64,000 bases of DNA from an uncultured virus (IMG/VR IMGVR_UViG_3300030098_002069) (lineage: Duplodnaviria; Heunggongvirae; Uroviricota; Caudoviricetes). The notes beneath the pieces are model-generated. The model was given only the letters and a program-made list of their open reading frames with translations. It ran no database searches and had not been told where the DNA came from. The stretch is taken from the IMG/VR virus record IMGVR_UViG_3300030098_002069, positions 1-64,000 of that record; one strand, 5' to 3'. The translations under genes were made by a program, and so were the position numbers. This document shows positions 40,942-64,000 of the stretch, one piece after another; the first letter of the stretch is position 1; every line of letters starts with the position of its first letter.

Positions 40942-40961
40942 TTCTGCATTCTAACAAAACT

Positions 40962-42524
40962 ATGGAGTTGTATATGAAATGTTATTATCATCCCGATATA
41001 ACTCTACAACACCAAGAAGTATCATATCGGGATTACACACAGCCTCAGGATGATGTACTGGGGGAATCAAGAAACAAAATTCAAGATGTTCTGTATTGCC
41101 CTGCGTGTTTTGAAGAACATGCAGATAAAGGTAAGCCAATGGAACAAAATTTGGTAGCAGACCATTTTGAATATACTATTACACCTGATGAATTAAGACA
41201 GATTGAATCAGATATTGAAACAAATATTGAAAATCAGGTTAATGAAAGGATGACATGATGAATAAACTGTCATTTGTAGGACAACTTAGTAAAACATTAG
41301 GTTATGTTGCTTTTGCATTAAACAATGTAATCCGTTTTGCAGGTAGTACTACACAACGTATTACAGATAGAATAACAAGTATCGATAGATATAATATAGA
41401 AATACTTGTTAACGGAGCTACTATGGTAGAGCATAAGAATCAATCAGCTGCACAATTATCTAGATTGTTAACAACAATGGATAACTTTGGTGTTACTGAG
41501 GTAATTATAACAAAAAAGATAAAGGCTGATGATGTTTCAAGTAATACAAAAGTCAAAGACTGATGCAAAAACACGGATTTGGAAAAGTGACCTATATAAA
41601 AAAACATGGGAAGAAGTTTACGCTGATATTGATAAAAAAAACGACACAGGATACTATAAAGGTCAAAAAATAACATACTATTCTAAAATACAAGACAAAA
41701 AAGAGCTAACAGAAGTGATCCCAAAATTCTATGAAAGAAATATGGGTACATTTAAAACACTAGATATAGCTAAGTCTGTAGTAGAAAAGTGTAATCTTGG
41801 GTTCCCTAGTATGGAACATGAGATAGTTGAAAAATAACTCAACGGGGAAGACATTAGATTAAACAGTTAAGGAATTTTCTGTTTTCGACCTCTTCCCCTG
41901 CGAGTAAAACAAAGGAGTTAACATGAAAAATATATCTTCAACACGTGAACTATTTATTAAAATACAAAAATTTTTAGATAGTTTAGGTTCAGGTAAACCA
42001 TTTAGTGTAAAATACGCAAAAGAGCTAAGTAACGATATATCAGTACTTAGAGGAATGGTTGATGAAGAAGTAGCTAGTTATCAACAAGAACATGAGTAAG
42101 AAAATAAGAGCAATATCATTTGATAATGCTAGAGAAATAAATACATTGGTATCAGTATTAAAAAGAGCTTCTAGTGCAATAGAACAAAAATATTATACTG
42201 AAGACGAAAGAATACAGATCAAAAAACTATTATCTGTAACATTAGAAGTTCAACAAATGTTTTTCGAAGGAGAAAAAGATGCCATTAATAAGTAACTGTT
42301 GTGGTGCAGAAGATGTGTCCCCTTTTGGAGATGCATCTTATAGTGATATGAAAGTATGCCCAGATTGCAAAGAACATTGTGTCTTTGAATGCTATGAGCA
42401 TAATCCAGTATATCAACAACCAGAACCAGAAAATAACGTACAAGAAGCATACTATTGCGATGAATGTGGTGAAGGACTACCACTTTTAGAGCAAGATATT
42501 ATGCTTGAGGCAAAGGAGGAATAA
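40962..42524 (+). other. run of small hypothetical genes (40962-41258, 41255-41563, 41529-41837, 41923-42099, 42092-42295, 42279-42524)
   Basis: Packed co-oriented ORFs with RBS or overlaps. Confidence 0.7.
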
Positions 42525-43549
42525 TGCCTGATTTTATTGACACAATGATGTATGTTGGTGAAACACCTTGGCACAAAGAGGGTGTCAAGTTAGAAAGACC
42601 ACCAACAATCAACGAAGCACTTAACCACTCAGGATTGATGTGGGAAGTGCAAAAAAGACCTACATATTACAATCTTAATCCAAGTATATATGGTTCTAAT
42701 TCATCAAATAACGAATCAGAAGAAGGATTTGGGAATGTAAGTACTGGACATTTTGTAACAGTACGTACAGATACACAACAAGTATTGGGACATGTATCTG
42801 GTAGGTATGAAGTATTACAGAATCGTGAAGCTTTTGAACCATTTGAACCGATGTTAGATATGGGATTTACCCTAGAAACAGCAGGTGCAGTACAAGATGG
42901 TAAAAAGATATGGGTACTTGCAAAAGCACCTGAATCTTCAATGGTTGGAAATGATGTAATAGACCAATATGTATTATTATATACATCTCACGATGGTTCA
43001 GCTGGTAGTACATTTAGACCTACAGCTGTAAGAGTTGTGTGTTATAATACACTTGAATTAGCACTTTCTAGAGAAAGTAAATGGAACTATAAATTAAAAC
43101 ATACTAGTAGTATTAGAGATAGAGTAAAGAATCTCACTAGTATTATAGAAAGATCCAATGGTGACTTTAGAACTGCTATAGATGATATGAATAGGTTTCA
43201 AGATAGATATATTAACGAAGATGAGTTAAAATTATATCTAGAAACAGTCATACCATTTCTAAAGAATAGGCACAAAGAAAGTATTCCAGAAATGGGTATC
43301 TTTGTTCGCAACACAGCAAAACCTGTGTACGATAAAATTGTAGATAACTTCTACAATGGAAGAGGAAACAATGGTGAAACATTGTGGGATGCTTATAATG
43401 CTATTACTGAATATTATACTCATGATAAAGAATATAAAGACTGGGTAAAACAAACACAGTTTGGTAAACCATATGATTATAAAGTAAAAGCATTTAAAGT
43501 TGCTAAAATGATTGCAAATGTTGATATGGAAGATATTACTATCAACTAA
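42524..43549 (+). CDS. DUF932/DUF945 family protein
   Basis: MMYVGETPWH, RYEVLQNREAF, ETAG...GKKIWVLAK, SHDGS, VRVVCYNTL, TLWDAYNAITEY. Confidence 0.88.
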   Translation: MPDFIDTMMYVGETPWHKEGVKLERPPTINEALNHSGLMWEVQKRPTYYNLNPSIYGSNSSNNESEEGFGNVSTGHFVTVRTDTQQVLGHVSGRYEVLQNREAFEPFEPMLDMGFTLETAGAVQDGKKIWVLAKAPESSMVGNDVIDQYVLLYTSHDGSAGSTFRPTAVRVVCYNTLELALSRESKWNYKLKHTSSIRDRVKNLTSIIERSNGDFRTAIDDMNRFQDRYINEDELKLYLETVIPFLKNRHKESIPEMGIFVRNTAKPVYDKIVDNFYNGRGNNGETLWDAYNAITEYYTHDKEYKDWVKQTQFGKPYDYKVKAFKVAKMIANVDMEDITIN

Positions 43550-43691
43550 CTGCATCCTCTATTTATGGGGGAAAACTTAATAATATCTTATAGTAATTAT
43601 TGAGTGCCTCAGAGAAGTGGCTGGTGGTTGTCTGCAGCACAAACCTAACAAAACACTCCCCATAATAACTTAAACAAAAAAAGGAACAAAT

Positions 43692-44363
43692 ATGAAAAAT
43701 AAAGTATTTGAGACACTAAGTAAAATAAATGTTAATGATATGACAGAAAAGAAAGGTCGTTTTACGTACCTATCTTGGTCAGACGCAGTTAACGCAGTTA
43801 AAAATGAGTTTCCAGATACTACATGGAAAAATCATGAGTTTGTTATAGAACATAAAGAAGGTAAATATACAATACCTTATATGTTAGACCCTATAACAGG
43901 ACATGGTTTTGTAAAATGTACAGTAACTATTGAAGGGCAAGAACATGAACACACACACCCTATACTTAATCATTTAAACAAGCCTATTGCTAAACCTGAT
44001 GCATTTGCTATTAATACAGCACAGCAGCGTTGTTTAGCTAAATGCCTTAGTTTACATGGTTTAGGGTTATATATCTATCAAGGCGAAGATCTTCCAGTTC
44101 TTACTAAAGAAGAAGAAGACCAGCAAGAAATAGATAAGGTTTATGATAGACCAGAAACATTGTTAAATGGTAAAACACCTGTAGAAGGTGGCATTACAGT
44201 CGATCAAAATGTTAAACTAGACAGATTATCACGTGACCCTGCATTAAAAGGAACAGATACACAGTCAGTTATTAAAACATATATCGACACAATGCCAACT
44301 AAAGAAAGTGCTGACAGAGCAATAACTAAATTACAAAACAAAATAAAGGAAGCTAAGAAATGA
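43692..44363 (+). CDS. Sak-like ssDNA annealing protein (DUF1071, Rad52-like)
   Basis: EKKGRFTYLSW, INTAQQRCLAKC..LHGLGLYIYQGEDLP. Confidence 0.88.
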   Translation: MKNKVFETLSKINVNDMTEKKGRFTYLSWSDAVNAVKNEFPDTTWKNHEFVIEHKEGKYTIPYMLDPITGHGFVKCTVTIEGQEHEHTHPILNHLNKPIAKPDAFAINTAQQRCLAKCLSLHGLGLYIYQGEDLPVLTKEEEDQQEIDKVYDRPETLLNGKTPVEGGITVDQNVKLDRLSRDPALKGTDTQSVIKTYIDTMPTKESADRAITKLQNKIKEAKK

Positions 44364-44941
44364 GATTAGGAACTACAAATAACAGTACCTCTAACACTTC
44401 GAGTGGTGGAGGTTACAGAACTGTAGAAAAAGTTAAACATGTTACTATAAGATACGATGAGAAACCAGCAAAGTACATGAAATATAATAGTGATGTATGC
44501 TTAGATGTAACATTCACTAGGACACGTAAAGATGGTGAACCTTACGATAAAACATTTACTATATCTGGTAATTTTAATCGTGAAAAGAAAACTTGGGGTT
44601 CAGCATTTAAGGTACAGCGTTTCTTTGAAGTATGTGATGTAGACACTAAAGACATAAATGATGACTGGAGTATACCAGACTCTTGGCTAGATATGGTAGT
44701 AGGTAAAGAATTTTCTTTTATCTCTTATCCATCTACTAGAAAGAAAGAAGATGGTAGTCCATATTGGAATGATTATGATTTAGTAATGCATCCTAACAAA
44801 GGTTCAGACGCACACAAATCTGAATTTATGAAATCTGTTAATGACGGATGGGTAAAAGATTACTCAACTAATAGTGCATTAGGAGATTTCGAAGCTGGTT
44901 CTGGTAAAGTAGACCTTAATTCTGAGGAACTTTCTTTATAG
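44360..44941 (+). CDS. probable ssDNA-binding protein
   Basis: Follows Sak; beta-rich with acidic tail. Confidence 0.5.
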   Translation: MRLGTTNNSTSNTSSGGGYRTVEKVKHVTIRYDEKPAKYMKYNSDVCLDVTFTRTRKDGEPYDKTFTISGNFNREKKTWGSAFKVQRFFEVCDVDTKDINDDWSIPDSWLDMVVGKEFSFISYPSTRKKEDGSPYWNDYDLVMHPNKGSDAHKSEFMKSVNDGWVKDYSTNSALGDFEAGSGKVDLNSEELSL

Positions 44942-45213
44942 TGTCAGTACCAACTATTAATCATATTCTGAAGAAATGGTTACGCAGAAGATTAGATCAG
45001 GGAAATTTCGTAGTCGCATCTCACGAAATTGAAACTGATTTACCTGCTTATGGTAGAGAATACTGGGGGAGACAACATACCCCCAGTACCTACTCTAGAG
45101 CATGGCGTGATTTTAAATCAGGAGATGATATGATAGACATAGATGTAATAAGTATCGAACCAATAAAAAATGAAAGCAAACAAACATCATGGATACTAAA
45201 GACTGGTATTTAG
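44941..45213 (+). CDS. hypothetical protein, possibly DNA-binding
   Basis: Coupled between SSB and primase; TPSTYSRAWR. Confidence 0.55.
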   Translation: MSVPTINHILKKWLRRRLDQGNFVVASHEIETDLPAYGREYWGRQHTPSTYSRAWRDFKSGDDMIDIDVISIEPIKNESKQTSWILKTGI

Positions 45214-47027
45214 AATACGCAGTTGGCAGCATATCTAACAGAATGAATATCTGTAGAGTTGACGAGTTTAGTGATATTGTTAAAAAGAATTTTGGTCAAG
45301 AGATATACAACAGTATGTTTCTATATAATCACGATATTATAGACCACGTTAACAAAACAGGTAGTGTTTCAGAGTTTAACGGTGAACAAGCAATAGATAA
45401 AATAGTTCTAGATATTGACCTAGTAGGAGAAAAGTCTGGAGACAAAACAAAAGATAAACTATTAGAATTAGTAGATGTTATGAATGGCAAAGGCATTGGT
45501 AACGAACTAATACAATTATGGTTTTCAGGTTCTGGATTTCACATCCACATACCAAATATCTATGGTTTTGAACCATCAAATAACATAGCTAAGATAGTAA
45601 GAGCTACTTTACAAAGAGATTTTGGAAACTATATAGATATGATCTATGATAGTAGAAGATTAATACGCTCTGGGTATTCATGTAACAAAAAAACTAGTTG
45701 TTATAAGATACCCTTATCTCTGCAAGAAGTCGAGCTTTGGGACTATGATAGCATAAAGGACTTCGCTAAAAAGATCCGAAATGACTGGATACCCCCAAAG
45801 TTCGATGCAGATAAAGACTACAAGCTAAACGACTTTGAACCAATGGACATAAGTCGTAAAAACTCGAATGAACATCGTAAGATATTCGAAAATCGTAGAG
45901 GAATTACAACCAGATGGATAACATGTGCACAACACATTTATAATGATGGTGAAGTTCCAAACATGAGACACAAGAATCTACTAAGAGTAGTTAGTTTGTG
46001 GATAAGACATTATGGATTTGATAAAATAGCCTGTGATAACCTCGCAAGAGCATATATGTCAAAAATGAATAATCCACTACCAGCTGACGAAGTTAGTAGA
46101 CTTGTTGCTGACGCATATAAAATAGGTGGCTATAAATATGGATGCGATGATGAAATACTAAGCCAATATTGTGATAGTAAATGCACTTTATTTAGATTTA
46201 AGAATCTAGATGAAGAAAGCAAAGTACTAAACTCCGATGAAATGGTTGATATGTTAGTAAACTACTTAAATACAGATTTCTCTGATAAGTCATTTAATTT
46301 AAAGGATATATTCCCTTTTATGCAAAATGACTTCTTATTTAGAGGTGGTGAACTAGCAATGTTAATAGGAGACACAAAACTTGGTAAAACTGCATTCTGG
46401 CAATACATAATAGCTAATCTACCAAAAGTAAGCACCTTATTCTTATCATTAGAAGTGGATAAAGAAAAGATCACTAGAAGATTTATTCAACAAACACTTA
46501 AAATGAATAAAGAAGAAGTGGAAAAATTACTAAAAGAACGAGACTCATATGTAATTAACAAAGCTAAAGAAGTTATGAGCAATATAAGCCTCACAACTGC
46601 TGCAGAAGCACCTGATATAACACAGTATTCTGAACTCATTGAGAAAAGTAATGCTAAAATAGTCGTTGTAGATACAATTGATAGAGTGAAAGCTAGGTAC
46701 GCTAAGAATGACCTACTTCAAAAACAAAACTATATCATAAACGAACTAAAAGACCTAGCAATGAAAGAAGAAGTTATTATATTAGGAGTATCACATATAT
46801 CAAAAGGAGCATCTTTTAGATTAAAAGAAGGCGAACGATTAGATATACATAGTGGTAAAGGCAGTAGTGATATGGAGCAAAAAGCTGATACAATAATTAG
46901 CTTTGAAGGTGATAGAAACATGAGCAGCAAACGTAGAGTAGAAGCGTTAGGTGCTCGTGATAATACACCATTCGAATTACTAGTTAACTTCGATTGGAAG
47001 ACTTTTACATTTAGTAAAAGAACATAA
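45189..47027 (+). CDS. primase-polymerase (AEP) fused to SF4/DnaB-like helicase
   Basis: LDID, FSGSGFHIH, RLIR AEP motifs; Cys cluster; Walker A GDTKLGKT, LSLE, VVVDTID, GSSDMEQKAD. Confidence 0.88.
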   Translation: MDTKDWYLEYAVGSISNRMNICRVDEFSDIVKKNFGQEIYNSMFLYNHDIIDHVNKTGSVSEFNGEQAIDKIVLDIDLVGEKSGDKTKDKLLELVDVMNGKGIGNELIQLWFSGSGFHIHIPNIYGFEPSNNIAKIVRATLQRDFGNYIDMIYDSRRLIRSGYSCNKKTSCYKIPLSLQEVELWDYDSIKDFAKKIRNDWIPPKFDADKDYKLNDFEPMDISRKNSNEHRKIFENRRGITTRWITCAQHIYNDGEVPNMRHKNLLRVVSLWIRHYGFDKIACDNLARAYMSKMNNPLPADEVSRLVADAYKIGGYKYGCDDEILSQYCDSKCTLFRFKNLDEESKVLNSDEMVDMLVNYLNTDFSDKSFNLKDIFPFMQNDFLFRGGELAMLIGDTKLGKTAFWQYIIANLPKVSTLFLSLEVDKEKITRRFIQQTLKMNKEEVEKLLKERDSYVINKAKEVMSNISLTTAAEAPDITQYSELIEKSNAKIVVVDTIDRVKARYAKNDLLQKQNYIINELKDLAMKEEVIILGVSHISKGASFRLKEGERLDIHSGKGSSDMEQKADTIISFEGDRNMSSKRRVEALGARDNTPFELLVNFDWKTFTFSKRT

Positions 47028-47086
47028 CAATGATAGGGCACTTATTCCTTTATTTGTGCCCTATTACACATACTAAAGGACTTATT

Positions 47087-51850: not shown

Positions 51851-51890
51851 ATATAGGGGAGGTGCTATGCACTTCCCTTATATTTTTTTT
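51851..51890. terminator. terminator between convergent blocks
   Basis: GGGAGGTGC-tat-GCACTTCCC followed by T-run. Confidence 0.8.
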
Positions 51891-52788
51891 ACTGATCTCC
51901 GAAAAATATATCTCCTAAGTTTGGATCCCAATCTCCAAACCAATTACCTTGTTTATATATATTGTCAGGTAACCAACCTTCCCCTCTTTTAATCCAAGGT
52001 ACGTTGTTTTGCAACCATCCACGAACACCCCTAACAGCTTTACGACCAGCTTCTCCACCAGTTGGTTTTGATGGCATATTATCATACTTCATTGGAAAAT
52101 CGTGGTCTACTAATTGACCCCTCATACCTAGTGGCATATTTTCTAACCAAGGCTTACCAATGTTTCTTTCAAATTCAACATCTGTTGTCATTGGGTGATA
52201 AGGATGATCTTTATTGTAAATTTGTTTTAAAAATGTTTCAGCATCATCACCATATTTTTTATGAGCTTGTTTTTCAGTTGGATAAGCACCCGCTGGTAAC
52301 CAACCACGTGCTGCTTTATCAGCTTTATCATAAGAAGTTAATTCTGGAACCCTACCTTTATCACCTAATGTATGACCCATAACTTCATGCCAAAATTCAT
52401 GAGGTACAACATCTGAATCTCTACCAGCATATCTAGGATTAATTAATATTCTTGCTGTATCAGTAGGAGCTGTTCTTGGCGTATAATAACCACCAGTTGT
52501 TTTTGATAAATCACTTCCATGATAATGACCACCTCTTGTATTACCATAAGCATTATATGCATCATGATGCATGTTTGCATACATTTTTAATCTACCAGCA
52601 TCAAATTCTTTTCTAATATCTGTAACCTTACTATCTAATCCTAAGTCATCTAAATATTTTTGACCAGCATCTTCTGGTAAGGTATTTAAAAAAGCATCAA
52701 CCCAAAGAGGAGAAACTTCACTTTTTTTTAAGTATTCTGGATATGGATAATCTTTACCCTGTTTCATTTTATATGCACCATTAGCCAT
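51889..52788 (-). CDS. zincin-like metallopeptidase-motif protein, probably virion-associated
   Basis: GGYY...ILINP...VVPHEFWHE (HExxH); coupled to the giant gene. Confidence 0.6.
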   Translation of the reverse strand: MANGAYKMKQGKDYPYPEYLKKSEVSPLWVDAFLNTLPEDAGQKYLDDLGLDSKVTDIRKEFDAGRLKMYANMHHDAYNAYGNTRGGHYHGSDLSKTTGGYYTPRTAPTDTARILINPRYAGRDSDVVPHEFWHEVMGHTLGDKGRVPELTSYDKADKAARGWLPAGAYPTEKQAHKKYGDDAETFLKQIYNKDHPYHPMTTDVEFERNIGKPWLENMPLGMRGQLVDHDFPMKYDNMPSKPTGGEAGRKAVRGVRGWLQNNVPWIKRGEGWLPDNIYKQGNWFGDWDPNLGDIFFGDQ

Positions 52789-55700
52789 TATGATTCTCCT
52801 AACATTTCTTCTATTTGTTCTTGCTGCAAACCTCTACGTTCAGCTCTTCTAAGTCTACTTCTAGCTGCATTAACTGGAAGCCTAAGTGTTATTTCACCTA
52901 CACGCTCTGGACTTTCAACAAGTTGTTTAATTTGTCGTATACCTCTACCAAAAGGAAACATAGTATATGCTGTATAACTACTAAACTTTTCCCAATCACC
53001 AGTCAACAATTCCCATGCTGCATCTGGTATTCTAGCAATTGGTGGCTTTAACAAGTTTAAAGCCCCTAGTTTAGAGCCAAAGAAAGCCATGTCACGTTCT
53101 CTTTTGTCTCCATATAACGAATCTGCAATAGATTGTATTGTATCTAATGGAGGTGCTAGTGCAGTATCAAAAATACTAAACATAAATGCACTACCCATTG
53201 CAAACATAAACATATCTATTGTATATATATCCTTAAATCTTTCGTATTCAGGTGTACCTTTCCTGAAACCATATAACTTAGCTTGTCTGTAAAACTCTTT
53301 ACGTACTCTTATAGAGTTCCAAACAAAAAGCTTGAATCTTGATAAAACTTTACCCATAGCAGTACGCATAAAAGCAGGTCTTGCTGAGTTCTGATATAAA
53401 AATTGAGTATTCTCTATGCCACGCATAGCCATATCAAAAACAAAGTCATCTTTTATAGATAGTTCTCTACCTTCTACACCATATCTATTAATAGTTTGTA
53501 TAGCATGTGCGGTAAAAGCATTTAAACGATTGACTTTTTCTGAGTGCTGCATAAAAAATGAACCATATTTTATCATAAGGTCTTTTACACCATACCTATC
53601 AATTACCTCTAATACAGTTTCTTCACCCTTACCTCTACCACTTTTCATAGCTTTAGTAATATCACGCTGTATATCTTTGATATTTACACCAGCTTTCTTT
53701 AAACCAGATGTTAAATCTGTGTTTACCTCAAATTCATTCTGTATAAAGTTGTCTATAACACCACGTTCTTCAAGATACTGAAGTAATTCTTTTTTAGTCT
53801 TAGCATATTTGCCATTGTTTAATTTAATTACTGGCTTACCATCTGCATCAGATAACAGTCTTTTATATATCTGTTTATCACTAAATGATCTAAAAAAGTT
53901 ACGCACCCCTGCACTACCAGCAGTCATAGCGTTACCACTAAATATATTAGTAGCCCACGTGCCTGTATTCGCCAGTAAACTCATTAACTGATACTGAGCC
54001 TCCATTCTACCAAATTCGTGGATTTTACGGCTAAAATACTCGATTCTAGCCTCCTTATCAACAGGAGCGTTCTTTATAAAAGGTGGTTTCCATCCTTTTC
54101 TCTCATATAAGTACTCATATCCTCTCACCATACTCTCATCAGAAGTTAAATAGAACAGGTTTTTCCTGTCTCTAAGCTTTAAAGGGTCTATCCCTTCTGT
54201 CATTCTAGTATTAAAATAAGATTGATGTCCTAAAATACTTTGCATATAAAGTCTAATGTAATCAGCCCAAACTTCTGGGTAGCTTTTGTAAACACTACCA
54301 TGTAATTTTAATTTTTCAGCTTTACTTACTTTATAACTTTTACTCATACCATGTAACATGTTATCAATTTCATATTGACCTTTTATTGCAGTAGCATTCT
54401 TATAATAGCCTCTAATTATTTTATCCATATAATCAGTAAGTAAAACAGGTCGTTTATCGTAACCAACCATATTAAATGCTCTGTCACGTAGTGGTGCTGG
54501 CATAGAACCCTGTTCATCAACAGTAACTTCTAGATCTTTTTCTGTAATTTTAGAAAAGTCAGCTAATAAAATATCTTTTAAAGACAGGGAATCTCCCTGT
54601 TCCATAGCTTTATTCTCCATTTTATATTGCCATTTTTGTGCATTTTCAATTGCAACTTCTTCTTTTACACCATTAGCAACGTCTTCAGCTATTCTTCTTT
54701 CTGTTTCAGTCTGTATCCATTCTTTAATTTCTCTACGTGCACCTTTATTGTATCCAAAATTCATATGGGGCATGTATTCACTATATTCAAACTTGCCTAT
54801 ACTTTGATAATTCTTACGATTCTTTAAACGAAAATCTTTTAAATCTTTTATATTTTTTTTACCTTGAATTAGCTTTTCTAATTTGTATTCAAATTGATAA
54901 CGCTTAAATCCTTCTGTACCAATTAAATTAATAATTTCAGGAGACTCAAGATTCTTTTCTATAACATTTAATCTAAAATGTTTATGGTCAAACTGACCAT
55001 CCTTATTCCATCTCATGTATTTATTTAATACACCACCTGTTTTTTTATACCAGCCATCAAAATCAGAATCTAATTCCCATTTACCTTGATTATCTGATAC
55101 TTTATTTTGATACCTATCTTTAGTATAAATAAACTTATCTCCAACATGCTCAAAAAACTTAGTGACATGCTTGTCTAGTCCTTCTAGTTTTTTTAATTCC
55201 TTAACATCTGTAGGTCTATATCCCTCTTCTCTGTATCTAAATAGTTCTTTAAATAATCTATGTTGCTCTTTAGCACTAAAATTATTTAAGTAATTAGTAA
55301 CAGGATCTAAGAATTTTTGACTAAAGTTTTTATCTTTAGTAATATGCATTTCTGCTCTTTGCCAATATTTACCTATTGAACCAATAGGAGAAGTAAAATG
55401 ATAAACAGGTTGCCATTCTAACCCCTTACTAGTCTTAACTAAACCATGATAAGCATAGTATGGTTTAAACATACCCTTACTAGAAAGCTTTTCATCAACA
55501 AAACGTGGGTCTAGGTGCCAGTATTTGAGCTTAAACTTCAATCCATAGGGGTCTCTTATACCTTCTATGTATTTATTTATAGCCATAACATCATCAAATG
55601 TTATAGTATCTGCTGACCTAGGCACACCCCCACCAGATAAAATACTAGTAAAATATTTAAACCATTCATTAAAGTTTTCAGAAAGTACCCTATGGTCTTC

Positions 55701-58700
55701 CATGTTTTTTCTAAACTCTTTTACTCCTTTAACCATATGGTCATTTAATGCCAGTAGGTTTAAGGCATCAGAATCTATAACCTCATTAATTGTCTCAAGC
55801 ACAGGTTCATTCCTACGCTTTTCAACATCTAATTTAATCTTGACTCGATCTTCTGGTTTAGATTCTTTCATAGATGTTCTTCTAAAAGTAAGATTTATTC
55901 TAGGCTTTCTGCCCTCTGTAGCCTTTGGTACAGAATGCAGGAATTGCTCTTGAGTCTCCCCTTGCATTATTAATAAATCATTTTCTTTTAAATTAATTCT
56001 ATAGTCCCTACCACCTTTTTTAATACTGTGTAGATTAAATGGTACTTCAGCACCAAAACTAACAGATGCTATAATAGGATTAGTACCTAACTCAGGTTCA
56101 TTATCTGCATGTCTACCGATACTATCTTTTTCGTTCCTGTATTTATTGACAAGCACCGAATTGAATTTTACTCCAGTAATATCTTCTATCTGTCTTTTTA
56201 TTGCAAGTATCTCTGGTATCCAAGGCTTAGGAGGAATTGGTTCTTTACCAGAATATGAATAATCTGTACCCTTGTCTCCATAGTATGCAGTTAACCTAGG
56301 TTCTTTCCTACCACCTATTTCACCCTGTTCCCATTCAATAGCAGCATCAAGTTTCTTCATGTCTACATTTTTAATCTTATTAATAAGATGAAGAATCTTT
56401 TTATTCTCATATTCAACAATTTTCGATTCAGGGTTTCTTCTTTCAGATATTTTAATAGGATCAACTTTTAGTTGAATGTCTTTTGTTAAGGCTCTATCAT
56501 ACATCTCTTCCATCTTTTGATAGTACTCACGCTTTGCTTCAAAAGGTATATTGCTAGAACCATGAATTGTTTTATTGTGATTTACCTCAGGTAAGTCTGC
56601 TTTTACATTCTTTTGTCTATACCCTGTTATAGGACTAAGTAATAAAGCATGAAAATAATCTAACAATGGCTTAGGACTTATCCCATTTTTTACTGCAAGG
56701 TCACTAAGGTCTTTGTTAGCTCTTTCTATCTTAGCCTCAAGCTCTACTATTCTTCCATCAGCTTCTTCTTTGCTTTCAGGTCTATTACGCATGAAAGCTT
56801 TTATTTTATTCTGTCTCTCTACTACCTCTGGTATTAATTTAGAAGTTATATCACCTTTAATATTTTTATCAGCTAATTCTTTATGGATTCTAATAAAATG
56901 CTTATGTAGTAATTCTATTGTACCTAATTGTCCATAGGTCTTTCCTATGCTATCTAATACTCTATTAAAATTATTTACTGCTGCAAGATTACTTATGTAT
57001 CCTTGACTATTAATTAACATATTATCAATAAGGATTCCTAAATGCTTTTCAACAAATTGAGAAATTTCTTTTTCAGAATAGCTTTTTAATGCACCTGTTC
57101 TAGATATTTCTATAGGCAATCTTTCTTTTATTGTCTTATGCGATTCAATTATATCAGGAAATCTTAGGTTATTAAGATTTATTCCCATATCATACATCTT
57201 ATTAACTAAGCTGGGGATAACAGTTTTTAATGCTTTATCACCATGAATTTTACTTTTAACCCAATTAATAGTATGAGCCATGTCATGTAAACTCATAGAA
57301 TCTTTTACATATAAATCTGATATTCTATATACAGCATTTTCTTTAGAGTTTCTATCTCTAGTAACTCTATATCTAACATCGTTAATACTAGTATTAGCAG
57401 TTTCTCCAATTTCTAATCCAATAGAGTCTATAAAATCTAACGGAACAAAGAATTTGTTTTTTAAAGTCTTCTTACCAAACGTATCTGTTTTATAAATAAA
57501 GTCTTTTATTTTTTTTATACTTAAACTTTTAGGAGTAGAAAGAGGCTTTGCTACATTAATAGCATCTCTTATTGCAGCTAAATGAGACTTGTTTCCCCAT
57601 TCATTTATTTCTTTATATCCAAAATATCTATCACCATCTAGGTTAGAACCCATAACCTTTTCACCAGTAGTCTTACTATATACTTCTGTTTTAAAAGCAG
57701 AATCAAATAACATCCTTCTAAAATTAGGATAATCAATAACTGTTGGGTCATTACTTGCATCAGCAGATTTATTAACAATAAGTGTACCTAAGTCTCTAAA
57801 GTATTGATCCCTTGTTTGTCCATTAACAAGACCATCTTTTAAACTAACTGTGGCTTCATATTCTTTACCATTTACTCCTTTAAATGAAAAGGAATAATTA
57901 CCACCATTTAATTTGACATAATCAATCCAGTTCTGCATTACTATCTTTGCAGAAAGACCATAGCCTAAACCACCCTTGCCTTTATTTGAACCCTCTGCTA
58001 CTTTATGTCTATAAGCTGGGGAAAATAAAAAGCTTCTAAAATATATATCATTACCTTCTTTATAACCTTTATCTCCCTCTTGTAACTTATATCCCTTGTA
58101 TCTCTGTATTTCATTTTCTGAAATATTAGGATCAGTAAATTCTTTTTCTAACCTATCTCTATACTCACCCTTTAAATGTGCTCTTTCACTAGCAACATCT
58201 TTAAATTTTTTAGTTAACTTATTAGAGAATCCTTGGAATATCTTAATACTGTCTGAGTCTTTATCTGCTCCACCAAGATATACGTTGTCTTTGTGGTGGG
58301 TAAAGGATCCAGCACCTCTCTGCCCCGTAAAACCCCTAAAACGTAAGACACGTGTACCAGACATGCTGTCAGCAGGAGTACGAATAGCCAAGAGATTAAA
58401 TGTCGTATTCCACTTTGCCACGTCAGGTTTTGACATCCCCTTATTATGGGATTTGCGATACTGCACCCAAGCTTCGCCCAACGTGACTGGCTCGTTCCTA
58501 ATATCCAAATTAGTCTGTTTAACATCTATTCCTTTTTCAAATAATATATTTATTAAATCTTTTTCTGGTATATATCTATTATTAATAGGCATATTTCTAA
58601 AAGCCTCATCAAGATATACTTCTCCTTCACGGAGATTTCTTGTTTTTTTCTTAGGGTCTATATCTACATACATCATTTGGTCAGGTGTAAATGCCTTCAA

Positions 58701-61700
58701 CCAAGATTTACCACCATGTTCTATATATGGATTAGAGAACCTACGAACAAGATACTTTTTGTATGCATTATGCCAATTGTCTTTAAATAAAACATTACGA
58801 ACAAGATATGTATCACGCATAGCCTCTGATAATAATTTATTTGTAGCATGGAACTGTTTATAATCTGCATTTGCATCAAACTCAAAGTCCATATCAAAGA
58901 AACCTTCCTTATCTAGCTTGTTTAGTTTATCCATAAACAAACGAGTTATCTTTGGTTCCTTGTTTTTTAAAACATAATCACGAACAAACTCAAAAGGTAT
59001 TTCCATTACCCCAAGGTCATGCTCATTCATTAACTTTATAAAACCCTTTACATCTTTTCCCTCTGTCTTTTCAAAAGCCCTAACAAGCTCCCTACCCCTA
59101 GCTGAACCAGCTAATGATGGTTCTATTACTTCTTTAAAATATTCTTTTGCAAATTCAGGAGCTTGTATTTCATTTGACTGACCATATAACTGTATAGGTA
59201 TTTCCTCACCTTTAATAGCCTTTACTACATTTTCAAACGTACCTGTACTTAATTGTAAATTATCTATAGGAAATTCATATATCTTTAATGGGTCTCTATT
59301 AAATAATTCTATTTGAGGTTTTTTAGTACCCCCTGTAGTCTCATACCAACCTTTTTTATACCCTATATCACTTGTTTGATGTTCACCCCTTAGCTTTGCA
59401 GAACTATCAAAAACAAGAAAGTCTACATTATTGGCTTCCATAAACTTATCCCAAACCTCATTAGCACGCTGTCCATTTGATTTAGTAGCAAATGTTCCAA
59501 GATTAGTAGCACCAACTAATACTGGCTTGTAATGACCAGATTTAGGATCAAGTCCTATTGCATGTGCCCCCGCATCATAAAAAGCTTTTCTTATTATAAT
59601 ACCACCATCTGTATCACTAGATTCTTTTTCTTGATGTTTTGGTGCTGTGGTATTTATATCTTTTATAATTACTACACGCATTAATCCATCAGGATTTGTT
59701 TTCTTAAAACTTAAAGGTGACAATGGAGTCATTCTATTAGAAAGTAACTGCATACGCTTATTAAAATCAGCAACGCTTTTACCATATCCCTTACCTAGTA
59801 ATCTATGTAATTGATTTAAGTTAGGTGCATTAGGGTCTACTAATTTATTATTAGCAGCATGATGCATTACGTTAGAAATCCACTTACGCTCATGGTTACT
59901 ATTCTCACCAAAAACACTTTTCTCAACTCTCTCTGAATGCTCATAAGATTTACGTATTGCCAATAATTTTACATTATCTCCCTGTGATAAAGCTTCAAAT
60001 ATCATTTCTTTTGTAAGCTGTATATTGCCTAAGCTATCTGCATAGTTAGCAGTCATTAAGAAGTCTTTATCTTTAACACCACTATATATGTACTTGCCAG
60101 ATTCATTTAATGCGTTCTGTACTAGCTTTAATCTGGCTGGACTTAGTTCAAATTTTACATTAGAACCATCAATTCTATTTTTTAATATTTTAAATGGCTT
60201 ACCATTTTCATCAATTCCATGAGTAAGAAATCTAAATCCCTTACCATAACCAATATATTCTAATGGTAGCTTATGGTATCTTTCCCCTATAGATACAGCA
60301 CCTACTTGTTGATTATCTGCTGTTTCTACAGTAGCATATGTCTTACCATTACGCTTAGATAGTTTAATATAATGTACTTTTTGTAAGGGCTCGACATCAC
60401 TATGCCAATGTTGTCTTAGTTTTCTTTCATGTTTTTTAAATACTTTATCACCAAGAATGTTTTTCATTCTTTCTATAAAAACTTCTACTTGTGGATCTTG
60501 ACCCTTTTTACCTAAACTTGCACTACGTGCCCCTTCCACAGCATCAGTAAAAGACTTTATATTTGTAAAAATATCTTTTTCTATATCGTTATACATACGT
60601 TCAGATAATTGATTAACACGATTCCTCTTTAATACAACATCATCTGTAAAGTCAGATTGCTGACTATTATATAACGCTTCTGAATTACTTATAGCATCCT
60701 GTATTCTCTCTATTAATCTAGTATCTATAGTATCCCTTGCTTTCTTTCTGTAATAAGAATGAATATCTTGTTCTTTAAAACTTTTTTCAGTCTTATTATA
60801 GTAATCTACAGCACGGTCTCTCCATTTGTATTCAGGAAAATGATGCTCTAAATAACCTAATGCTGAACCAGTAGAGCCTTTTAAACCCTCTGAGTTCTTA
60901 AAAGAAGGCATAGGGTGTTCTTCTATTATATATTTTCTAGTTTTTTTACTTAAATATTTAAAGTCTCTAGCAAGTTCTGGGTCTACTATATCTCGTATAT
61001 CCCTAGAAAATCTTCCCTCTCCTTGCTTTTCTCCCAGCAGCCACTTACCAGCAGCAGCTTCATGTGCAGGTCTAGTATTATATCCAAAGAAACCACCTAG
61101 TAAATATTCATATATCTGCATTTCCGTAGGGTCACCACGTAATGTAGATGGGATTCCCATAAACATTGATGCAACACCAGCTCTAAGTCTTTTGTTAGCA
61201 GTATCTATTTGAGCAGGAGTACCCTTATATAGTTTACCTACTGATACAAAATTACCTATACCACCGAATGCACCACCTGCTATAGCACCACCAACAAATG
61301 CATCAGCCATTATATCCTTACCCTTCCATACAGAACTAACAGCACTAGCAACACCAAGACCTAATGCTTCTTCAGTAATAGCTCTTGTCTTTGCACCTTT
61401 ACGTAAAAAATCTAATGTTTCTAGTTTAGATTTATTTAAACTAACATCCATTAATTTTTTAGTACCCCTAGATGCAATCATTGGAACTGCCATAGCATCT
61501 AAAGTATCTATACCAGATTGTATGGCTTTATAGAATCCTGTATTGCCAAATGGTTTTCTAAGAAGAGACAATGGAGCTTTCATAATAGCTGGAGCAAACC
61601 CAGCAAGATGCCCCAATTGTCTAAAGATTGCTTCTCCAGTATTGCGTGGTTCTTTAGGGATGAGATCAAATGTAGTTAATCCCTCAATAAACCCAGCTTG

Positions 61701-61874
61701 AGCCTGTTGCAATCCTCTTCTTAAACTAAAATCAGATTGCATTCTTTTGAATCTTATCTGATTAATTTCAGCAAGGTATTCTAGTTCATCTAACTGATCG
61801 TCAGAGAACATATCAGGGTTAGCCCTGTATGTGTTGATTAGGCTTTTTACTTTATAGCCTTCGTAACTAGCCAA
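52788..61874 (-). CDS. giant internal virion protein: putative two-barrel RNA polymerase with inserted AlkB dioxygenase
   Basis: 3028 aa; DTDGGIII (about 59600), LAIRTPAD (about 58380), LGGADKDSD (58251-58277); AlkB HAD/H/RINLTFR at 55873-56340; Gly/Ala-rich N-terminus. Confidence 0.8.
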   Translation of the reverse strand: MASYEGYKVKSLINTYRANPDMFSDDQLDELEYLAEINQIRFKRMQSDFSLRRGLQQAQAGFIEGLTTFDLIPKEPRNTGEAIFRQLGHLAGFAPAIMKAPLSLLRKPFGNTGFYKAIQSGIDTLDAMAVPMIASRGTKKLMDVSLNKSKLETLDFLRKGAKTRAITEEALGLGVASAVSSVWKGKDIMADAFVGGAIAGGAFGGIGNFVSVGKLYKGTPAQIDTANKRLRAGVASMFMGIPSTLRGDPTEMQIYEYLLGGFFGYNTRPAHEAAAGKWLLGEKQGEGRFSRDIRDIVDPELARDFKYLSKKTRKYIIEEHPMPSFKNSEGLKGSTGSALGYLEHHFPEYKWRDRAVDYYNKTEKSFKEQDIHSYYRKKARDTIDTRLIERIQDAISNSEALYNSQQSDFTDDVVLKRNRVNQLSERMYNDIEKDIFTNIKSFTDAVEGARSASLGKKGQDPQVEVFIERMKNILGDKVFKKHERKLRQHWHSDVEPLQKVHYIKLSKRNGKTYATVETADNQQVGAVSIGERYHKLPLEYIGYGKGFRFLTHGIDENGKPFKILKNRIDGSNVKFELSPARLKLVQNALNESGKYIYSGVKDKDFLMTANYADSLGNIQLTKEMIFEALSQGDNVKLLAIRKSYEHSERVEKSVFGENSNHERKWISNVMHHAANNKLVDPNAPNLNQLHRLLGKGYGKSVADFNKRMQLLSNRMTPLSPLSFKKTNPDGLMRVVIIKDINTTAPKHQEKESSDTDGGIIIRKAFYDAGAHAIGLDPKSGHYKPVLVGATNLGTFATKSNGQRANEVWDKFMEANNVDFLVFDSSAKLRGEHQTSDIGYKKGWYETTGGTKKPQIELFNRDPLKIYEFPIDNLQLSTGTFENVVKAIKGEEIPIQLYGQSNEIQAPEFAKEYFKEVIEPSLAGSARGRELVRAFEKTEGKDVKGFIKLMNEHDLGVMEIPFEFVRDYVLKNKEPKITRLFMDKLNKLDKEGFFDMDFEFDANADYKQFHATNKLLSEAMRDTYLVRNVLFKDNWHNAYKKYLVRRFSNPYIEHGGKSWLKAFTPDQMMYVDIDPKKKTRNLREGEVYLDEAFRNMPINNRYIPEKDLINILFEKGIDVKQTNLDIRNEPVTLGEAWVQYRKSHNKGMSKPDVAKWNTTFNLLAIRTPADSMSGTRVLRFRGFTGQRGAGSFTHHKDNVYLGGADKDSDSIKIFQGFSNKLTKKFKDVASERAHLKGEYRDRLEKEFTDPNISENEIQRYKGYKLQEGDKGYKEGNDIYFRSFLFSPAYRHKVAEGSNKGKGGLGYGLSAKIVMQNWIDYVKLNGGNYSFSFKGVNGKEYEATVSLKDGLVNGQTRDQYFRDLGTLIVNKSADASNDPTVIDYPNFRRMLFDSAFKTEVYSKTTGEKVMGSNLDGDRYFGYKEINEWGNKSHLAAIRDAINVAKPLSTPKSLSIKKIKDFIYKTDTFGKKTLKNKFFVPLDFIDSIGLEIGETANTSINDVRYRVTRDRNSKENAVYRISDLYVKDSMSLHDMAHTINWVKSKIHGDKALKTVIPSLVNKMYDMGINLNNLRFPDIIESHKTIKERLPIEISRTGALKSYSEKEISQFVEKHLGILIDNMLINSQGYISNLAAVNNFNRVLDSIGKTYGQLGTIELLHKHFIRIHKELADKNIKGDITSKLIPEVVERQNKIKAFMRNRPESKEEADGRIVELEAKIERANKDLSDLAVKNGISPKPLLDYFHALLLSPITGYRQKNVKADLPEVNHNKTIHGSSNIPFEAKREYYQKMEEMYDRALTKDIQLKVDPIKISERRNPESKIVEYENKKILHLINKIKNVDMKKLDAAIEWEQGEIGGRKEPRLTAYYGDKGTDYSYSGKEPIPPKPWIPEILAIKRQIEDITGVKFNSVLVNKYRNEKDSIGRHADNEPELGTNPIIASVSFGAEVPFNLHSIKKGGRDYRINLKENDLLIMQGETQEQFLHSVPKATEGRKPRINLTFRRTSMKESKPEDRVKIKLDVEKRRNEPVLETINEVIDSDALNLLALNDHMVKGVKEFRKNMEDHRVLSENFNEWFKYFTSILSGGGVPRSADTITFDDVMAINKYIEGIRDPYGLKFKLKYWHLDPRFVDEKLSSKGMFKPYYAYHGLVKTSKGLEWQPVYHFTSPIGSIGKYWQRAEMHITKDKNFSQKFLDPVTNYLNNFSAKEQHRLFKELFRYREEGYRPTDVKELKKLEGLDKHVTKFFEHVGDKFIYTKDRYQNKVSDNQGKWELDSDFDGWYKKTGGVLNKYMRWNKDGQFDHKHFRLNVIEKNLESPEIINLIGTEGFKRYQFEYKLEKLIQGKKNIKDLKDFRLKNRKNYQSIGKFEYSEYMPHMNFGYNKGARREIKEWIQTETERRIAEDVANGVKEEVAIENAQKWQYKMENKAMEQGDSLSLKDILLADFSKITEKDLEVTVDEQGSMPAPLRDRAFNMVGYDKRPVLLTDYMDKIIRGYYKNATAIKGQYEIDNMLHGMSKSYKVSKAEKLKLHGSVYKSYPEVWADYIRLYMQSILGHQSYFNTRMTEGIDPLKLRDRKNLFYLTSDESMVRGYEYLYERKGWKPPFIKNAPVDKEARIEYFSRKIHEFGRMEAQYQLMSLLANTGTWATNIFSGNAMTAGSAGVRNFFRSFSDKQIYKRLLSDADGKPVIKLNNGKYAKTKKELLQYLEERGVIDNFIQNEFEVNTDLTSGLKKAGVNIKDIQRDITKAMKSGRGKGEETVLEVIDRYGVKDLMIKYGSFFMQHSEKVNRLNAFTAHAIQTINRYGVEGRELSIKDDFVFDMAMRGIENTQFLYQNSARPAFMRTAMGKVLSRFKLFVWNSIRVRKEFYRQAKLYGFRKGTPEYERFKDIYTIDMFMFAMGSAFMFSIFDTALAPPLDTIQSIADSLYGDKRERDMAFFGSKLGALNLLKPPIARIPDAAWELLTGDWEKFSSYTAYTMFPFGRGIRQIKQLVESPERVGEITLRLPVNAARSRLRRAERRGLQQEQIEEMLGES

Positions 61875-61876: not shown

Positions 61877-62692
61877 CTAGTCGCCGAATCCACCCATCAT
61901 ATAATCAGCTCCACCTATTGCTGTAGCACCACCAGCACCAGCTAATAACATTTGTGCTTGTTCTAAGCCAATGTTTAGTCTAGCAGCTAATTGAGCAGCA
62001 GCATCTGAAGCAGCCCTAGTTCCACCACGTACTAATTCTGGAGCCAGTCTTCTTGCACCTGCAACACCTCTAACACCAAGGTCTCTAGCACCTCTGGCAC
62101 CTCTAATTGCTAAATCTCTAGCACCTCTAACACCCCTAGCACCTTCATATCTTGCTCTATGATATAATGGACTTCCAGCTAGTCTATCTCTAGCACGACC
62201 TATAGCTTGTCTAGGATTCTGCATACCATATCTAAGATTATGATAGGCAGGACTTTTAGCTAATATGTCTGCACCTTTACCACCAATATTTCTACCTTGT
62301 TGGCTCATTTTTTGAGCTATCTGTCTTATTCTATCTTTTGGATTAACACTAGTACCCATATTCCAAACACCTCTAGCACCTTTTGCAGCTAGTCCTAAAC
62401 TACCACCAAATCCAGCTATAGTTCCTAGTCCACTTGCAAATTGGTCTAAACCAGTTTCACCATAGACAGACTCACCTCTTGATTGTGGCTCCCATTGGTC
62501 AGGCATTAGCAATCCTAATGTCATCATATCAAGAGCACTATAAGCACCCTTTGCTAAAGGTCTTGACTCTTTTCTAAAGTGCTGACCCATTTGTTTTGCC
62601 ATCATTGCAATAGCTTCTGCCTCATTATCGTTATAACGATTAGGGTTTCTATTGTAATCTATTAACAATGACCTCATTTGATCTCTGTTCAT
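61877..62692 (-). CDS. internal virion (ejection) protein with GAR repeats
   Basis: Gly/Ala-rich; N-terminus resembles that of the giant protein. Confidence 0.6.
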   Translation of the reverse strand: MNRDQMRSLLIDYNRNPNRYNDNEAEAIAMMAKQMGQHFRKESRPLAKGAYSALDMMTLGLLMPDQWEPQSRGESVYGETGLDQFASGLGTIAGFGGSLGLAAKGARGVWNMGTSVNPKDRIRQIAQKMSQQGRNIGGKGADILAKSPAYHNLRYGMQNPRQAIGRARDRLAGSPLYHRARYEGARGVRGARDLAIRGARGARDLGVRGVAGARRLAPELVRGGTRAASDAAAQLAARLNIGLEQAQMLLAGAGGATAIGGADYMMGGFGD

Positions 62693-62714
62693 TTTATTCT
62701 CCTGTTATTCTAAA

Positions 62715-63236
62715 TTACCAATTTATATCTGTTGCTTCTAATAAATTCATTGGAGTAGCAGCAGGATATTGAGTATTTATTATATTAGTTAATTCTGGAT
62801 ACCATTTAGTTATATGATCTGTGGCTCTTGGTTCATCTGGAATAAGGTGTCTACCAGCTTCTCTTGACCCACGTTCTGCTGCAGACTCAGTAAGAGGATT
62901 AGCATCAACCATCCATTGCATAAACCTATACCAAGGTGTTGCTCCATCAAGGTTTTCAGCCTGATTTCTCCTTCTCATAAAATCTACTTCATCTTCTTTC
63001 TTTTTTTGCTTTGCTTCAATAAAGCTACCTAATTCATCAAACATCTTATTTCTTTTATCCCAGTCTGTTTGCATCCTGCCTTCTCTAGCTTGATTTATAG
63101 CTAAATTACCTTCATTTACAGCAGCCTGTCTTTCATTTACACTAGCTTTTCTAGCTCCAAGAACAGCATCTAATAAACTTCTACTTCCTTCAGAACTATA
63201 ACCTGTCCAGCGTTGTTGCATTTGTGGTACTATCAT
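62715..63236 (-). CDS. probable internal virion protein
   Basis: In ejection-protein block; AVNE repeats. Confidence 0.5.
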   Translation of the reverse strand: MIVPQMQQRWTGYSSEGSRSLLDAVLGARKASVNERQAAVNEGNLAINQAREGRMQTDWDKRNKMFDELGSFIEAKQKKKEDEVDFMRRRNQAENLDGATPWYRFMQWMVDANPLTESAAERGSREAGRHLIPDEPRATDHITKWYPELTNIINTQYPAATPMNLLEATDINW

Positions 63237-63245
63237 ATTATTCTC

Positions 63246-63989
63246 CTAAGTTGTTTTGTTCATTCCTAAGAATGACCCACCTAAATTAAACAAGTTATTA
63301 CTCATATTGTTTCTCCAAGATGATTGTGCATTTTGATTCTGAACTTGTTGATTGTATTGTGCTTGTTTTAAATACTGATTATAAGTATTCTGATTTTGTG
63401 TATTAAATTGCTGATTAGCTAAAGCTCTTTGGTCTATTCCACTAGCAAATTGTCCACCTTGACCATAAGCTTGTGTAGCCATTTGACCAAACTGACCAGC
63501 CATACCAAGAGAAGTATTCATAATACCTTGCATACCCTGAGCATATTGATCTCCTGCTTGTCTATTAGTTACAGCATCATATACATTACCCATTCCCATA
63601 ACACCTCTAGCTGCCATTGCTGCATTCATATTGCCAATAGTTTGCTGTCTCATGTCTCCTACATTCTGTCTAAGGTTCTGAAACATTCTTTGATTATAAG
63701 AACCACTTGGATTTATCATATCTTGATAAGTATTTCTAAAATCTTTTCCTAGTCCAAAACTATTCTTTATACTTTGAGTTAAAAGTGGATTAGTTTGATA
63801 ATCACTCTTTGATAAATCAAAACTAAAGTCCTGATTTATATTCTCAGGCTTATTCATAGCCCCTGTTAACAAACCCATTCCAGCTGACGCTATTCCTAGA
63901 TACGGACTTGCTGCTGTTAAAAAACTACTCATATTAAAATTACTCCCTGTTGGTTGATTAGCTACTACATTTCCAGAAAAACCTGCCAT
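63246..63989 (-). CDS. probable DNA ejection/pilot protein
   Basis: Gly/Gln/Asn/Met-rich low-complexity protein with hydrophobic N-terminal helix. Confidence 0.6.
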   Translation of the reverse strand: MAGFSGNVVANQPTGSNFNMSSFLTAASPYLGIASAGMGLLTGAMNKPENINQDFSFDLSKSDYQTNPLLTQSIKNSFGLGKDFRNTYQDMINPSGSYNQRMFQNLRQNVGDMRQQTIGNMNAAMAARGVMGMGNVYDAVTNRQAGDQYAQGMQGIMNTSLGMAGQFGQMATQAYGQGGQFASGIDQRALANQQFNTQNQNTYNQYLKQAQYNQQVQNQNAQSSWRNNMSNNLFNLGGSFLGMNKTT

Positions 63990-64000
63990 AAGAGGAGAAT

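Follow-up and report, generated by a model that had tools for sequence, protein, structure and literature searches.

What is the function of a protein of 3028 amino acids (aa) encoded at the end of the structural operon of a small, uncultured marine podovirus? The question is raised by a 64,000-nucleotide (nt) stretch of Caudoviricetes DNA, positions 1 to 64,000 of IMG/VR record IMGVR_UViG_3300030098_002069 (hereafter the window), whose late genes include one giant open reading frame (ORF). A sequence-only reading of the window had suggested that this ORF specifies an injected RNA polymerase (RNAP) of the two-barrel type fused to an AlkB dioxygenase. Our analysis indicates that its product most likely belongs to a new family of virion-packaged, injected, single-chain two-barrel RNAPs, distantly related to gp66 of Cellulophaga phage phi14:2 and to the RNA interference (RNAi) polymerase QDE-1. 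Sequence comparisons make it highly probable that the catalytic core is a homologue of the crAss/QDE-1-type polymerase core, and the complete reading, which also comprises packaging, injection, early transcription and an active AlkB enzyme, appears likely.

The putative catalytic core of the giant protein

The 3028-aa ORF is real and lies inside the late operon, where it starts four bases past the stop codon of the preceding gene (Table 1). The TTG start, and with it the long form of the protein, is credible, since residues 1-21 agree with the consensus that family alignments give for the relatives. Every motif quoted in the sequence-only reading, the DKDSD box included, was recovered at its exact place (Table 1). 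A bare DxDxD is a cheap motif and occurs twice in the giant protein, the second time as DSDFD at aa 2269; the first one, DKDSD, is far beyond chance. In an alignment of 93 relatives the invariant or nearly invariant positions comprise D703, N705, K706, R707, D756, G757, K783, P784, K798, K827, Q895, G923, P1049, R1165, P1167, D1169, S1170, G1173, R1175, G1181, G1201, G1202, D1204, D1206, D1208, R1289, N1368 and D1372, and the invariances of the core recur in three further family alignments. The stretch YLGGADKDxD is present in all 47 non-redundant IMG/VR relatives (drawn from 69 usable loci among the 77 loci of the family in that database), down to 17–23% identity.

A strict G[GA]ADxDxD box was found in 204 of 241 relatives, with variation confined to the non-Asp positions: GGADKDSD (69 proteins), GGADLDGD (42), GGADKDAD (38) and GGADKDID (16), followed by the rarer forms GGADLDID (13), GGADKDGD (6) and GGADYDGD (3). 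A looser pattern adds GGMDLDID in 12 proteins, and such loose forms cover most of the relatives without the strict box. That DKDSD differs from the customary DFDGD or DFDID, as had been pointed out, holds for this protein, whereas among its wider relatives it is one state beside DLDGD, DLDID and DYDGD. Because the family thus includes both D[LY]DGD and crAss-type DxDID forms, the oddness of DKDSD is no longer a worry. The GGADLDGD and GGADYDGD boxes of many relatives presumably resemble the D[LY]DGD box of QDE-1 and other RNAi polymerases. The family also bridges the catalytic box from the crAss form (DFDID) to the DLDGD and DYDGD forms. Such a bridge bears on the link between phage enzymes and RNAi polymerases proposed in the abstract of a preprint.

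The barrel that holds the Asp triad also contains R1165-T-P1167 (window 58374-58382), G1181 and G1202-A-D1204-K-D1206-S-D1208. An R-x-P followed about 35 aa later by GxDxDxD had been taken as the signature of the active site; the pair is indeed present at a fixed distance, but this distance is 39 rather than about 35 residues. R1165 and D1204 are 39 residues apart, compared with 35 in Escherichia coli beta', and the same spacing of 39 was found in 211 of the 223 family proteins that have the pattern (242 examined) and in 120 of 120 proteins of the gp66 family. Conservation of DKDSD and RTP among homologues had been singled out beforehand as one of the points on which the idea should stand or fall, and both are conserved.

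Gp66 itself has a solved two-barrel structure, synthesizes RNA in an Asp-dependent manner and is found in virions, according to its preprint (structure PDB 6VR4, as cited in a preprint on Thermus phage P23-45). Profile comparison with hhalign, using a gp66-family alignment built from 120 proteins, placed the core of the giant protein on the catalytic core of gp66 with the blocks in the right order, as the sequence-only reading would lead one to expect. The local matches fall, in order, on the lysine barrel, the RxP...DFDID barrel and the bridge helix in gp66, while whole-region scores are weak. The real comparison scored 27.0, and 12 column shuffles and a reversed template reached at most 22.2. 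In a 6x6 matrix of blocks from both families, the three cognate pairs are the best three of 36 (P values in Table 1), and all 33 non-cognate pairs have P values of 0.043 or higher. In an independent comparison of the family alignment with 48 full-length gp66 relatives, hhalign gave a score of 36.6 (P 0.012) over 136 columns and placed DxxKR, TD and K827 on their invariant gp66 counterparts.

The correspondence extends to individual residues and spacings. K783, K798, M812 and K827 align with K1012, K1027, M1050 and K1065 of gp66, so that K783-15-K798 faces K1012-15-K1027, and both families have an invariant Gly at +16 from the Arg of RxP and a Gly at -2 from the first Asp. A bridge-helix-like stretch at aa ~1281-1308 (GKxGLG) aligns with the gp66 bridge helix, and V1367-N1368..D1372..P1377, which resembles a trigger loop, aligns with V1611-D..D1616-P1617 within the gp66 trigger loop. 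This block covers residues 1525-1621 of gp66, for which the preprint gives the bridge helix as 1529-1559 and the trigger loop as 1598-1636. On the whole of E. coli beta' (RpoC), the best place for the beta'-like block is residues 410-473, which hold the NADFDGD barrel; this match is weak (P 0.17). In a language-model (ESM) atlas the nearest named cluster is a phage 'RdRP PF05183' (score 0.83), which is a lead only. No match was obtained when the whole-protein profile was compared with the single gp66 sequence, comparison with phi14:2 gp67 gave nothing meaningful, and no gp67 counterpart was found. In favour of the polymerase reading, no other RNAP was detected in the 92 ORFs scanned.

Like phi14:2 gp66, the giant protein is a single giant chain specified by the last gene of a late operon, after genes for an endolysin, a metallophosphatase and large proteins, which in phi14:2 are virion proteins, with collinear DxxKR, TD, K-15-K, KxG, RxP-36-GxDxDxD, bridge-helix-like and trigger-loop-like blocks. 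Unlike gp66, it has DKDSD in place of DFDID, 3028 instead of 2180 aa, unrelated N- and C-terminal modules and a phage of ~45-50 kb instead of ~100 kb, and neither BLAST nor HMMER nor Pfam detects any similarity between the two proteins. Published descriptions of QDE-1 place three Asp in one barrel, with G1005 two residues before D1007, and a fourth Asp (D709) together with basic residues in the second one; a bridge helix and a trigger loop are also described. Judged against these descriptions, the giant protein resembles QDE-1 and the eukaryotic RNAi polymerases in having an Asp triad and, two residues ahead of it, a Gly, and in the fourth Asp and basic residues of the other barrel. D756 is thus a candidate for the fourth catalytic Asp of the beta-like barrel, comparable to QDE-1 D709, and by position D756, K783, K798, K827 and G1202 fit QDE-1 active-site roles.

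Virion two-barrel RNAPs are already known from crAss-like phages and from P23-45. The P23-45 protein gp96 is described as a two-barrel RNAP within a giant virion protein that was first recognized by its DxDxD box; by that description its carrier is the tape measure of a siphovirus, unlike the giant podovirus protein studied here. The family would represent a third lineage of virion-type two-barrel polymerase, carried by small, abundant, uncultured marine podoviruses. N4 gp50, the virion RNAP of the Schitoviridae, is reported to be a giant protein with a T7-like fold that is injected and transcribes the early genes. It is similarly a giant late-operon protein of about 3000-3500 aa, and it belongs to a different polymerase fold class. 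An N4-like (T7-type) virion RNAP was considered for the giant protein and rejected, with no PHROG, Pfam or PDB match to such an enzyme and no HExxH metallopeptidase motif in the protein.

Based on these comparisons, we predict that the core forms a pair of double-psi barrels and synthesizes RNA. D1204, D1206 and D1208 would hold the catalytic Mg, D756, K783, K798 and K827 of the second barrel would hold a second metal and the RNA 3' end, and the bridge helix and trigger loop would follow the barrels. In the mechanism we propose, the giant protein would be made late, packed in the head and expelled together with the DNA, with its conserved N- and C-terminal modules serving packaging and passage, and the core would make the first phage transcripts without the host enzyme. 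Packaging, injection and early transcription are suggested by gene order and the analogy to gp66. If this is a third such family, early transcription that does not depend on the host would also occur in a further phage group, a large clade of small, uncultured marine podoviruses.

Table 1. Positions of features in the window and of segments within the giant protein
Feature	Window position	Strand	Residues	Remarks
Giant ORF	52788..61874	minus	1-3028	TTG start, 3028 aa; final large gene in the structural (late) operon
N-terminal module, conserved	60825..61874	minus	1-350	many nearly invariant columns in two family alignments
Glycine-rich hydrophobic segment, N-terminal module	61245-61313	minus	188-210	hydropathy scan
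RNAP-like catalytic core	57732..59810	minus	689-1381	collinear with phi14:2 gp66 aa 874-1621 (hhalign)
D703-F-N-K706-R707	59754..59768	minus	703-707	aligns with invariant D890..K893-R894 of the gp66 family
Beta-like (lysine) barrel block	59340..59672	minus	735-845	P 0.0083
S753-D-T-D756-G757	59604..59618	minus	753-757	T755-D756 aligns with invariant gp66 T961-D962
SDTDGGIII			753-761	motif of the giant protein
HYKP			781-784	motif of the giant protein
ATKS			796-799	motif of the giant protein
LREGEVYL			1081-1088	motif of the giant protein
Beta'-like barrel block	58200..58547	minus	1110-1225	P 1e-4
LAIRTPADS			1162-1170	motif of the giant protein
LGGADKDSDSI			1200-1210	motif of the giant protein
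DKDSD	58251..58265	minus	1204-1208	predicted Mg-binding aspartate triad, all three Asp invariant
Bridge-helix-like and trigger-loop-like stretches	57675..58052	minus	1275-1400	P 0.0082
AlkB-type 2-oxoglutarate-Fe(II) dioxygenase, ALKBH3/2-like	55881..56363	minus	1838-1998	
C-terminal module, highly conserved	52791..54587	minus	2430-3028	phrog_11358 match
PLxRFG-like stretch, C-terminal module	53307-53834	minus	2681-2856	
Hydrophobic segment, C-terminal module	53157-53228	minus	2883-2906	
Three small late genes (271, 173 and 279 aa)	61877..64000	minus		directly upstream of the giant gene; third reaches 64085, past the window
299-aa gene	51889..52788	minus		overlaps the stop codon of the giant ORF; no family match
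TerL	33428-34903	minus		head gene of the giant-gene phage
P22-like portal	31146-33356	minus		head gene of the giant-gene phage
SU10-like capsid protein	28454-29812	minus		head gene of the giant-gene phage
Adaptor	26299-26949	minus		head gene of the giant-gene phage
Eleven 'hairpin + TTCCTYTATYTNTG box' units	36642..47058	plus		before plus-strand early genes; candidate promoters or terminators

The AlkB domain, other accessory domains and the termini

The AlkB domain, whose fusion to the giant protein had also been proposed, is certain. It matches PF13532 with an E value of 3.8e-29 (102.7 bits against a cut-off of 31.2), the sole curated family on the giant protein, and the PHROG 'alkylated DNA repair' family matches it as well. 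Its nearest solved relatives are human ALKBH3 (E 2e-32) and ALKBH2 (E 4e-25), with E. coli AlkB at 3e-4. The iron ligands H1922-x-D1924 and H1980 and the 2-oxoglutarate-binding R1992 and R1998 are in place, and these five catalytic residues are kept in 11 of 11 aligned family copies.

AlkB is an insertion and not a trait of the family, as it is present in only 12 of 241 relatives. Its offset from the catalytic Asp varies (+53 to +140, +511 to +517, +625 to +655, or -1024), and copies from different offset groups are 43-57% identical. Larger relatives carry cpYpsA, DUF7831, NADAR or an SF1 helicase, and the gp66 homologues list the same five families: AlkB, NADAR, DUF7831, cpYpsA and SF1 helicase. 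In three gp66 homologues, AlkB and a helicase lie C-terminal to the polymerase, and their AlkB domains are 22-28% identical to those of the giant-protein family. Carriers of accessory domains include P0242, P0261, P0330, P0347, P0348 and P0351 among the relatives, and P0202, P0204, P0219 and others among the gp66 homologues; DUF4326 was seen on two members of a family alignment. Two distant polymerase families have thus gathered the same accessory kit independently, which would be hard to explain unless both polymerase families do the same job. A literature search that covered few subscription journals returned no paper describing crAss polymerases with a fused AlkB or NADAR domain.

The occurrence of such domains on two distant polymerase families leads to the idea that injected polymerases bring along their own template-cleaning or counter-defence enzymes. 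Acting as a demethylase, AlkB could strip 1-methyladenine- or 3-methylcytosine-type lesions from the single-stranded template or from newly made RNA and thereby keep the initial round of transcription from stalling; its substrate is putative. More broadly, and as a tentative suggestion that we hold to be rather doubtful, the injected polymerase might be a delivery platform for adduct-stripping enzymes, with AlkB beside the polymerase acting on the entering template or the first transcripts. The kit would comprise AlkB for methyl groups, NADAR for ADP-ribose, a cpYpsA/SLOG domain, DUF7831 and an SF1 helicase, and would be drawn on by ~100-kb crAss-like phages as well as ~45-kb marine podoviruses. 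AlkB could then reverse base methylation inflicted by the host or borne by seawater before the expression of phage genes begins.

The best-conserved parts of the giant protein are its two termini, each of which contains one hydrophobic segment (Table 1). The N-terminal module may take part in membrane insertion or ejection. In the C-terminal module, the PLxRFG family (NCBIfam NF032893) scores 26.7 bits (E 1.8e-6) and does not reach its curated cut-off of 100. The last ~90 aa of the family profile match gp01 of Klebsiella phage LASTA (i-E 4.5e-6), a protein of 4433 aa encoded at L085:215-13516 that is annotated as DarB-like and has SLT, an Eco57I-type methylase, an SNF2 helicase and LPD39. Both are giant multi-domain proteins from the end of a podovirus late operon, and unlike the giant protein, LASTA gp01 lacks a DxDxD and does not match the core. 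The ~90-aa stretch that they have in common may be a packaging or ejection module.

Alternative roles for the giant protein

Several observations weigh against a virion RNAP. The hhalign probabilities were below 5% in the gp66 comparisons (P 1e-4 to 0.012). As the block limits were chosen once the first matches were known, the matrix control was not fully blind. Searches of the core (aa ~690-1380) against Pfam, PHROGs and NCBIfam found no RNAP family, phmmer and hmmsearch comparisons with PDB sequences gave coiled-coil or chance matches only, and PF00623 was not detected in six frames of the contig, while 14 of 14 control genomes were positive. The silence of such standard searches is weak evidence, because gp66, a proven enzyme, itself has no Pfam hit at E <= 1. 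Furthermore, 19 of 242 family proteins fall outside the RxP...DxDxD pattern (four of them are fragments of <1300 aa), and a Lys at position two of the box has no parallel in the known enzymes examined. Finally, about half of the TTCCTYTATYTNTG boxes that precede the early genes (see below) are followed by a TGnTATAAT-like stretch, so that the host RNAP may read these genes.

Could the core be another enzyme altogether? The giant protein might be an injected 'polyvalent' protein in which the core is some other Mg-dependent nucleic-acid enzyme, such as a two-barrel DNA polymerase or primase, a nucleotidyltransferase or a nuclease, and AlkB is one among several cargo domains for counter-defence. 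LASTA gp01, which shares the C-terminal ~90 aa and is a multi-domain late-operon protein without DxDxD, is of the polyvalent type in the sense of PMC5512222; together with the PLxRFG match (E 1.8e-6), the differing cargo domains of the relatives and the lack of a statistically strong match to any RNAP, it lends this explanation some weight. However, the core is present in all relatives while the cargo domains come and go, and the gp66 match spans three separate catalytic elements, which follow each other in the expected order, share their spacings with gp66 and have invariant residues that coincide, gp66 itself being an RNAP as its preprint describes. We therefore regard a polyvalent protein with a different core as unlikely. 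If the giant protein instead served only in virion structure or ejection, its acidic box would bind a metal for structural reasons and AlkB would be a mere passenger. The ejection proteins of podoviruses are large and evolve fast, and hydrophobic segments at the termini would suit one; yet nineteen invariant polar residues in a polymerase-like layout persist at 17-23% identity, and the catalytic residues of AlkB are kept in 11 of 11 family copies, which makes a purely structural role very improbable.

A two-barrel RNAP could also act in the cell without being packaged, either in middle or late transcription or in a primase-like or RNA-dependent role. Published descriptions of two-barrel phage RNAPs include non-virion enzymes, e.g., P23-45 gp64, and QDE-1 is described as copying both RNA and DNA; packaging, for its part, is suggested here by gene order and analogy. 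On the other hand, the giant gene closes the structural operon and is not among the early genes, its product of 3028 aa has conserved termini with hydrophobic segments, and the gene order is as in phi14:2, whose gp66 is part of the virion. If it were made only late, a polymerase could not start the infection cycle unless it was carried in. We thus consider a non-packaged enzyme quite improbable and favour the virion-packaged, injected RNAP, with which the outcome of every test made here agreed.

Phage genome, early region and distribution

The gene order on which packaging is argued belongs to what appears to be one of two phages in the record. The contig ends at position 73241 and appears to join two phages: the window contains two complete head modules with TerL, P22-like portal and capsid genes (355-7768 and 26299-34903), the contig's final 50 bases are repeated at 24380-24429 inside a lectin-repeat fibre gene, and synteny with a complete 47-kb relative (G003) is confined to the part from 24.4 to 73.2 kb. 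The window thus looks like a junction of one phage (1-24429) with another (24430-64000). The head genes of the latter are 76-79% identical and syntenic in G003 (TerL 79%, portal 76%), compared with 81% for the endolysin, 72% for the metallophosphoesterase and 49-56% for the giant protein. A 1182-aa protein with four ConA-like lectin (Laminin_G_3) repeats is encoded at 22391-25939 (minus strand), and a 649-aa relative of it lies at the contig end (L002:8260-10209, minus strand); both are likely fibres, and the lectin repeat they share is the probable cause of the misjoin.

Since its relatives measure 42-50 kb, the giant-gene phage should be about 49 kb in size. The minus-strand late operon runs from TerL, portal, SU10-like capsid protein and adaptor through the lectin-repeat fibre, a spanin-like gene and an M15 endolysin to the metallophosphoesterase and a protein of 1004 aa, after which come three small proteins, the giant gene and a gene of 299 aa. 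The metallophosphoesterase gene (contig 67344-68501) adjoins that of the M15 endolysin, and the same pairing occurs in phi14:2 (g075, g077). The three small genes upstream of the giant gene have no family match, and by their position their products are candidate companion ejection proteins. A plus-strand block at 36.7-51.8 kb encodes DUF932, a Sak annealing protein, a primase-helicase and a ParB-like protein. Neither a tail sheath nor a tape measure was found among the 92 ORFs scanned, and a tRNA scan found none. TerL is ~25% identical to that of any cultured phage, with N4-like phages among the matches.

The plus-strand early region contains eleven copies of TTCCTYTATYTNTG between 36.6 and 47.1 kb, whereas 1.0 copy is expected by chance in the whole window. 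Most copies are preceded by a hairpin of variable sequence and followed, 15-60 nt downstream, by a Shine-Dalgarno sequence and a start codon. In 36 such units, the 42 nt upstream of the box have a mean folding energy of -10.6 kcal/mol, compared with -4.4 kcal/mol (standard deviation 3.5) for 1200 random windows, and some units score as terminator-like. Relatives down to ~50% identity of the giant protein also carry the box (9, 9, 6+1, 4+2 and 2+2 copies; controls 0-1). In the distant relatives G006-G009 it is at chance level, and a crude k-mer search there revealed no hairpin-linked box. Sigma-70-like sites are not enriched in the early region (48 found, 57 expected), and Rfam gave no match at 35-53 kb. 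The units may be promoters of the phage polymerase, terminators or host-type promoters. One possibility is that they act as single-strand hairpin promoters for the giant polymerase, which would apply the logic of N4 to a two-barrel enzyme. For phi14:2, the preprint reports a motif at middle genes read by the host RNAP and none at the gp66-dependent early genes.

The family is widespread. A word-indexed search with aa 700-1500 retrieved 100 giant proteins of 1868-3222 aa, many of them from Tara and other marine sets, and a profile search of 1.84 billion representatives returned at least 430 clusters (50% identity) at E <= 0.001, 270 of them at E <= 1e-30. The phage itself was detected in marine metagenomes of six studies, with no RNA run among the sequencing runs matched. 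Searches of 50,697 phage records with the core, the N-terminus and the C-terminus (blastn and tblastn) gave no match, and the literature search mentioned above yielded no paper on the giant-protein family.

One relative (30% identity) is encoded on a 46,061-bp contig (L095) titled as a Prochlorococcus single-cell assembly, with the core match at 3001-5199. This contig was the only match among 185,579 species genomes and is identical over the locus to an IMG/VR record (L029); Prochlorococcus is a possible host for that branch only. Three stretches of ten N each (14406-14415, 18673-18682 and 19062-19071) interrupt the part of the window belonging to the other phage, which at 14712-16689 (minus strand) encodes, one after the other, a protein resembling C5 cytosine methylases, a PD-(D/E)XK nuclease and an N6/N4 methylase.

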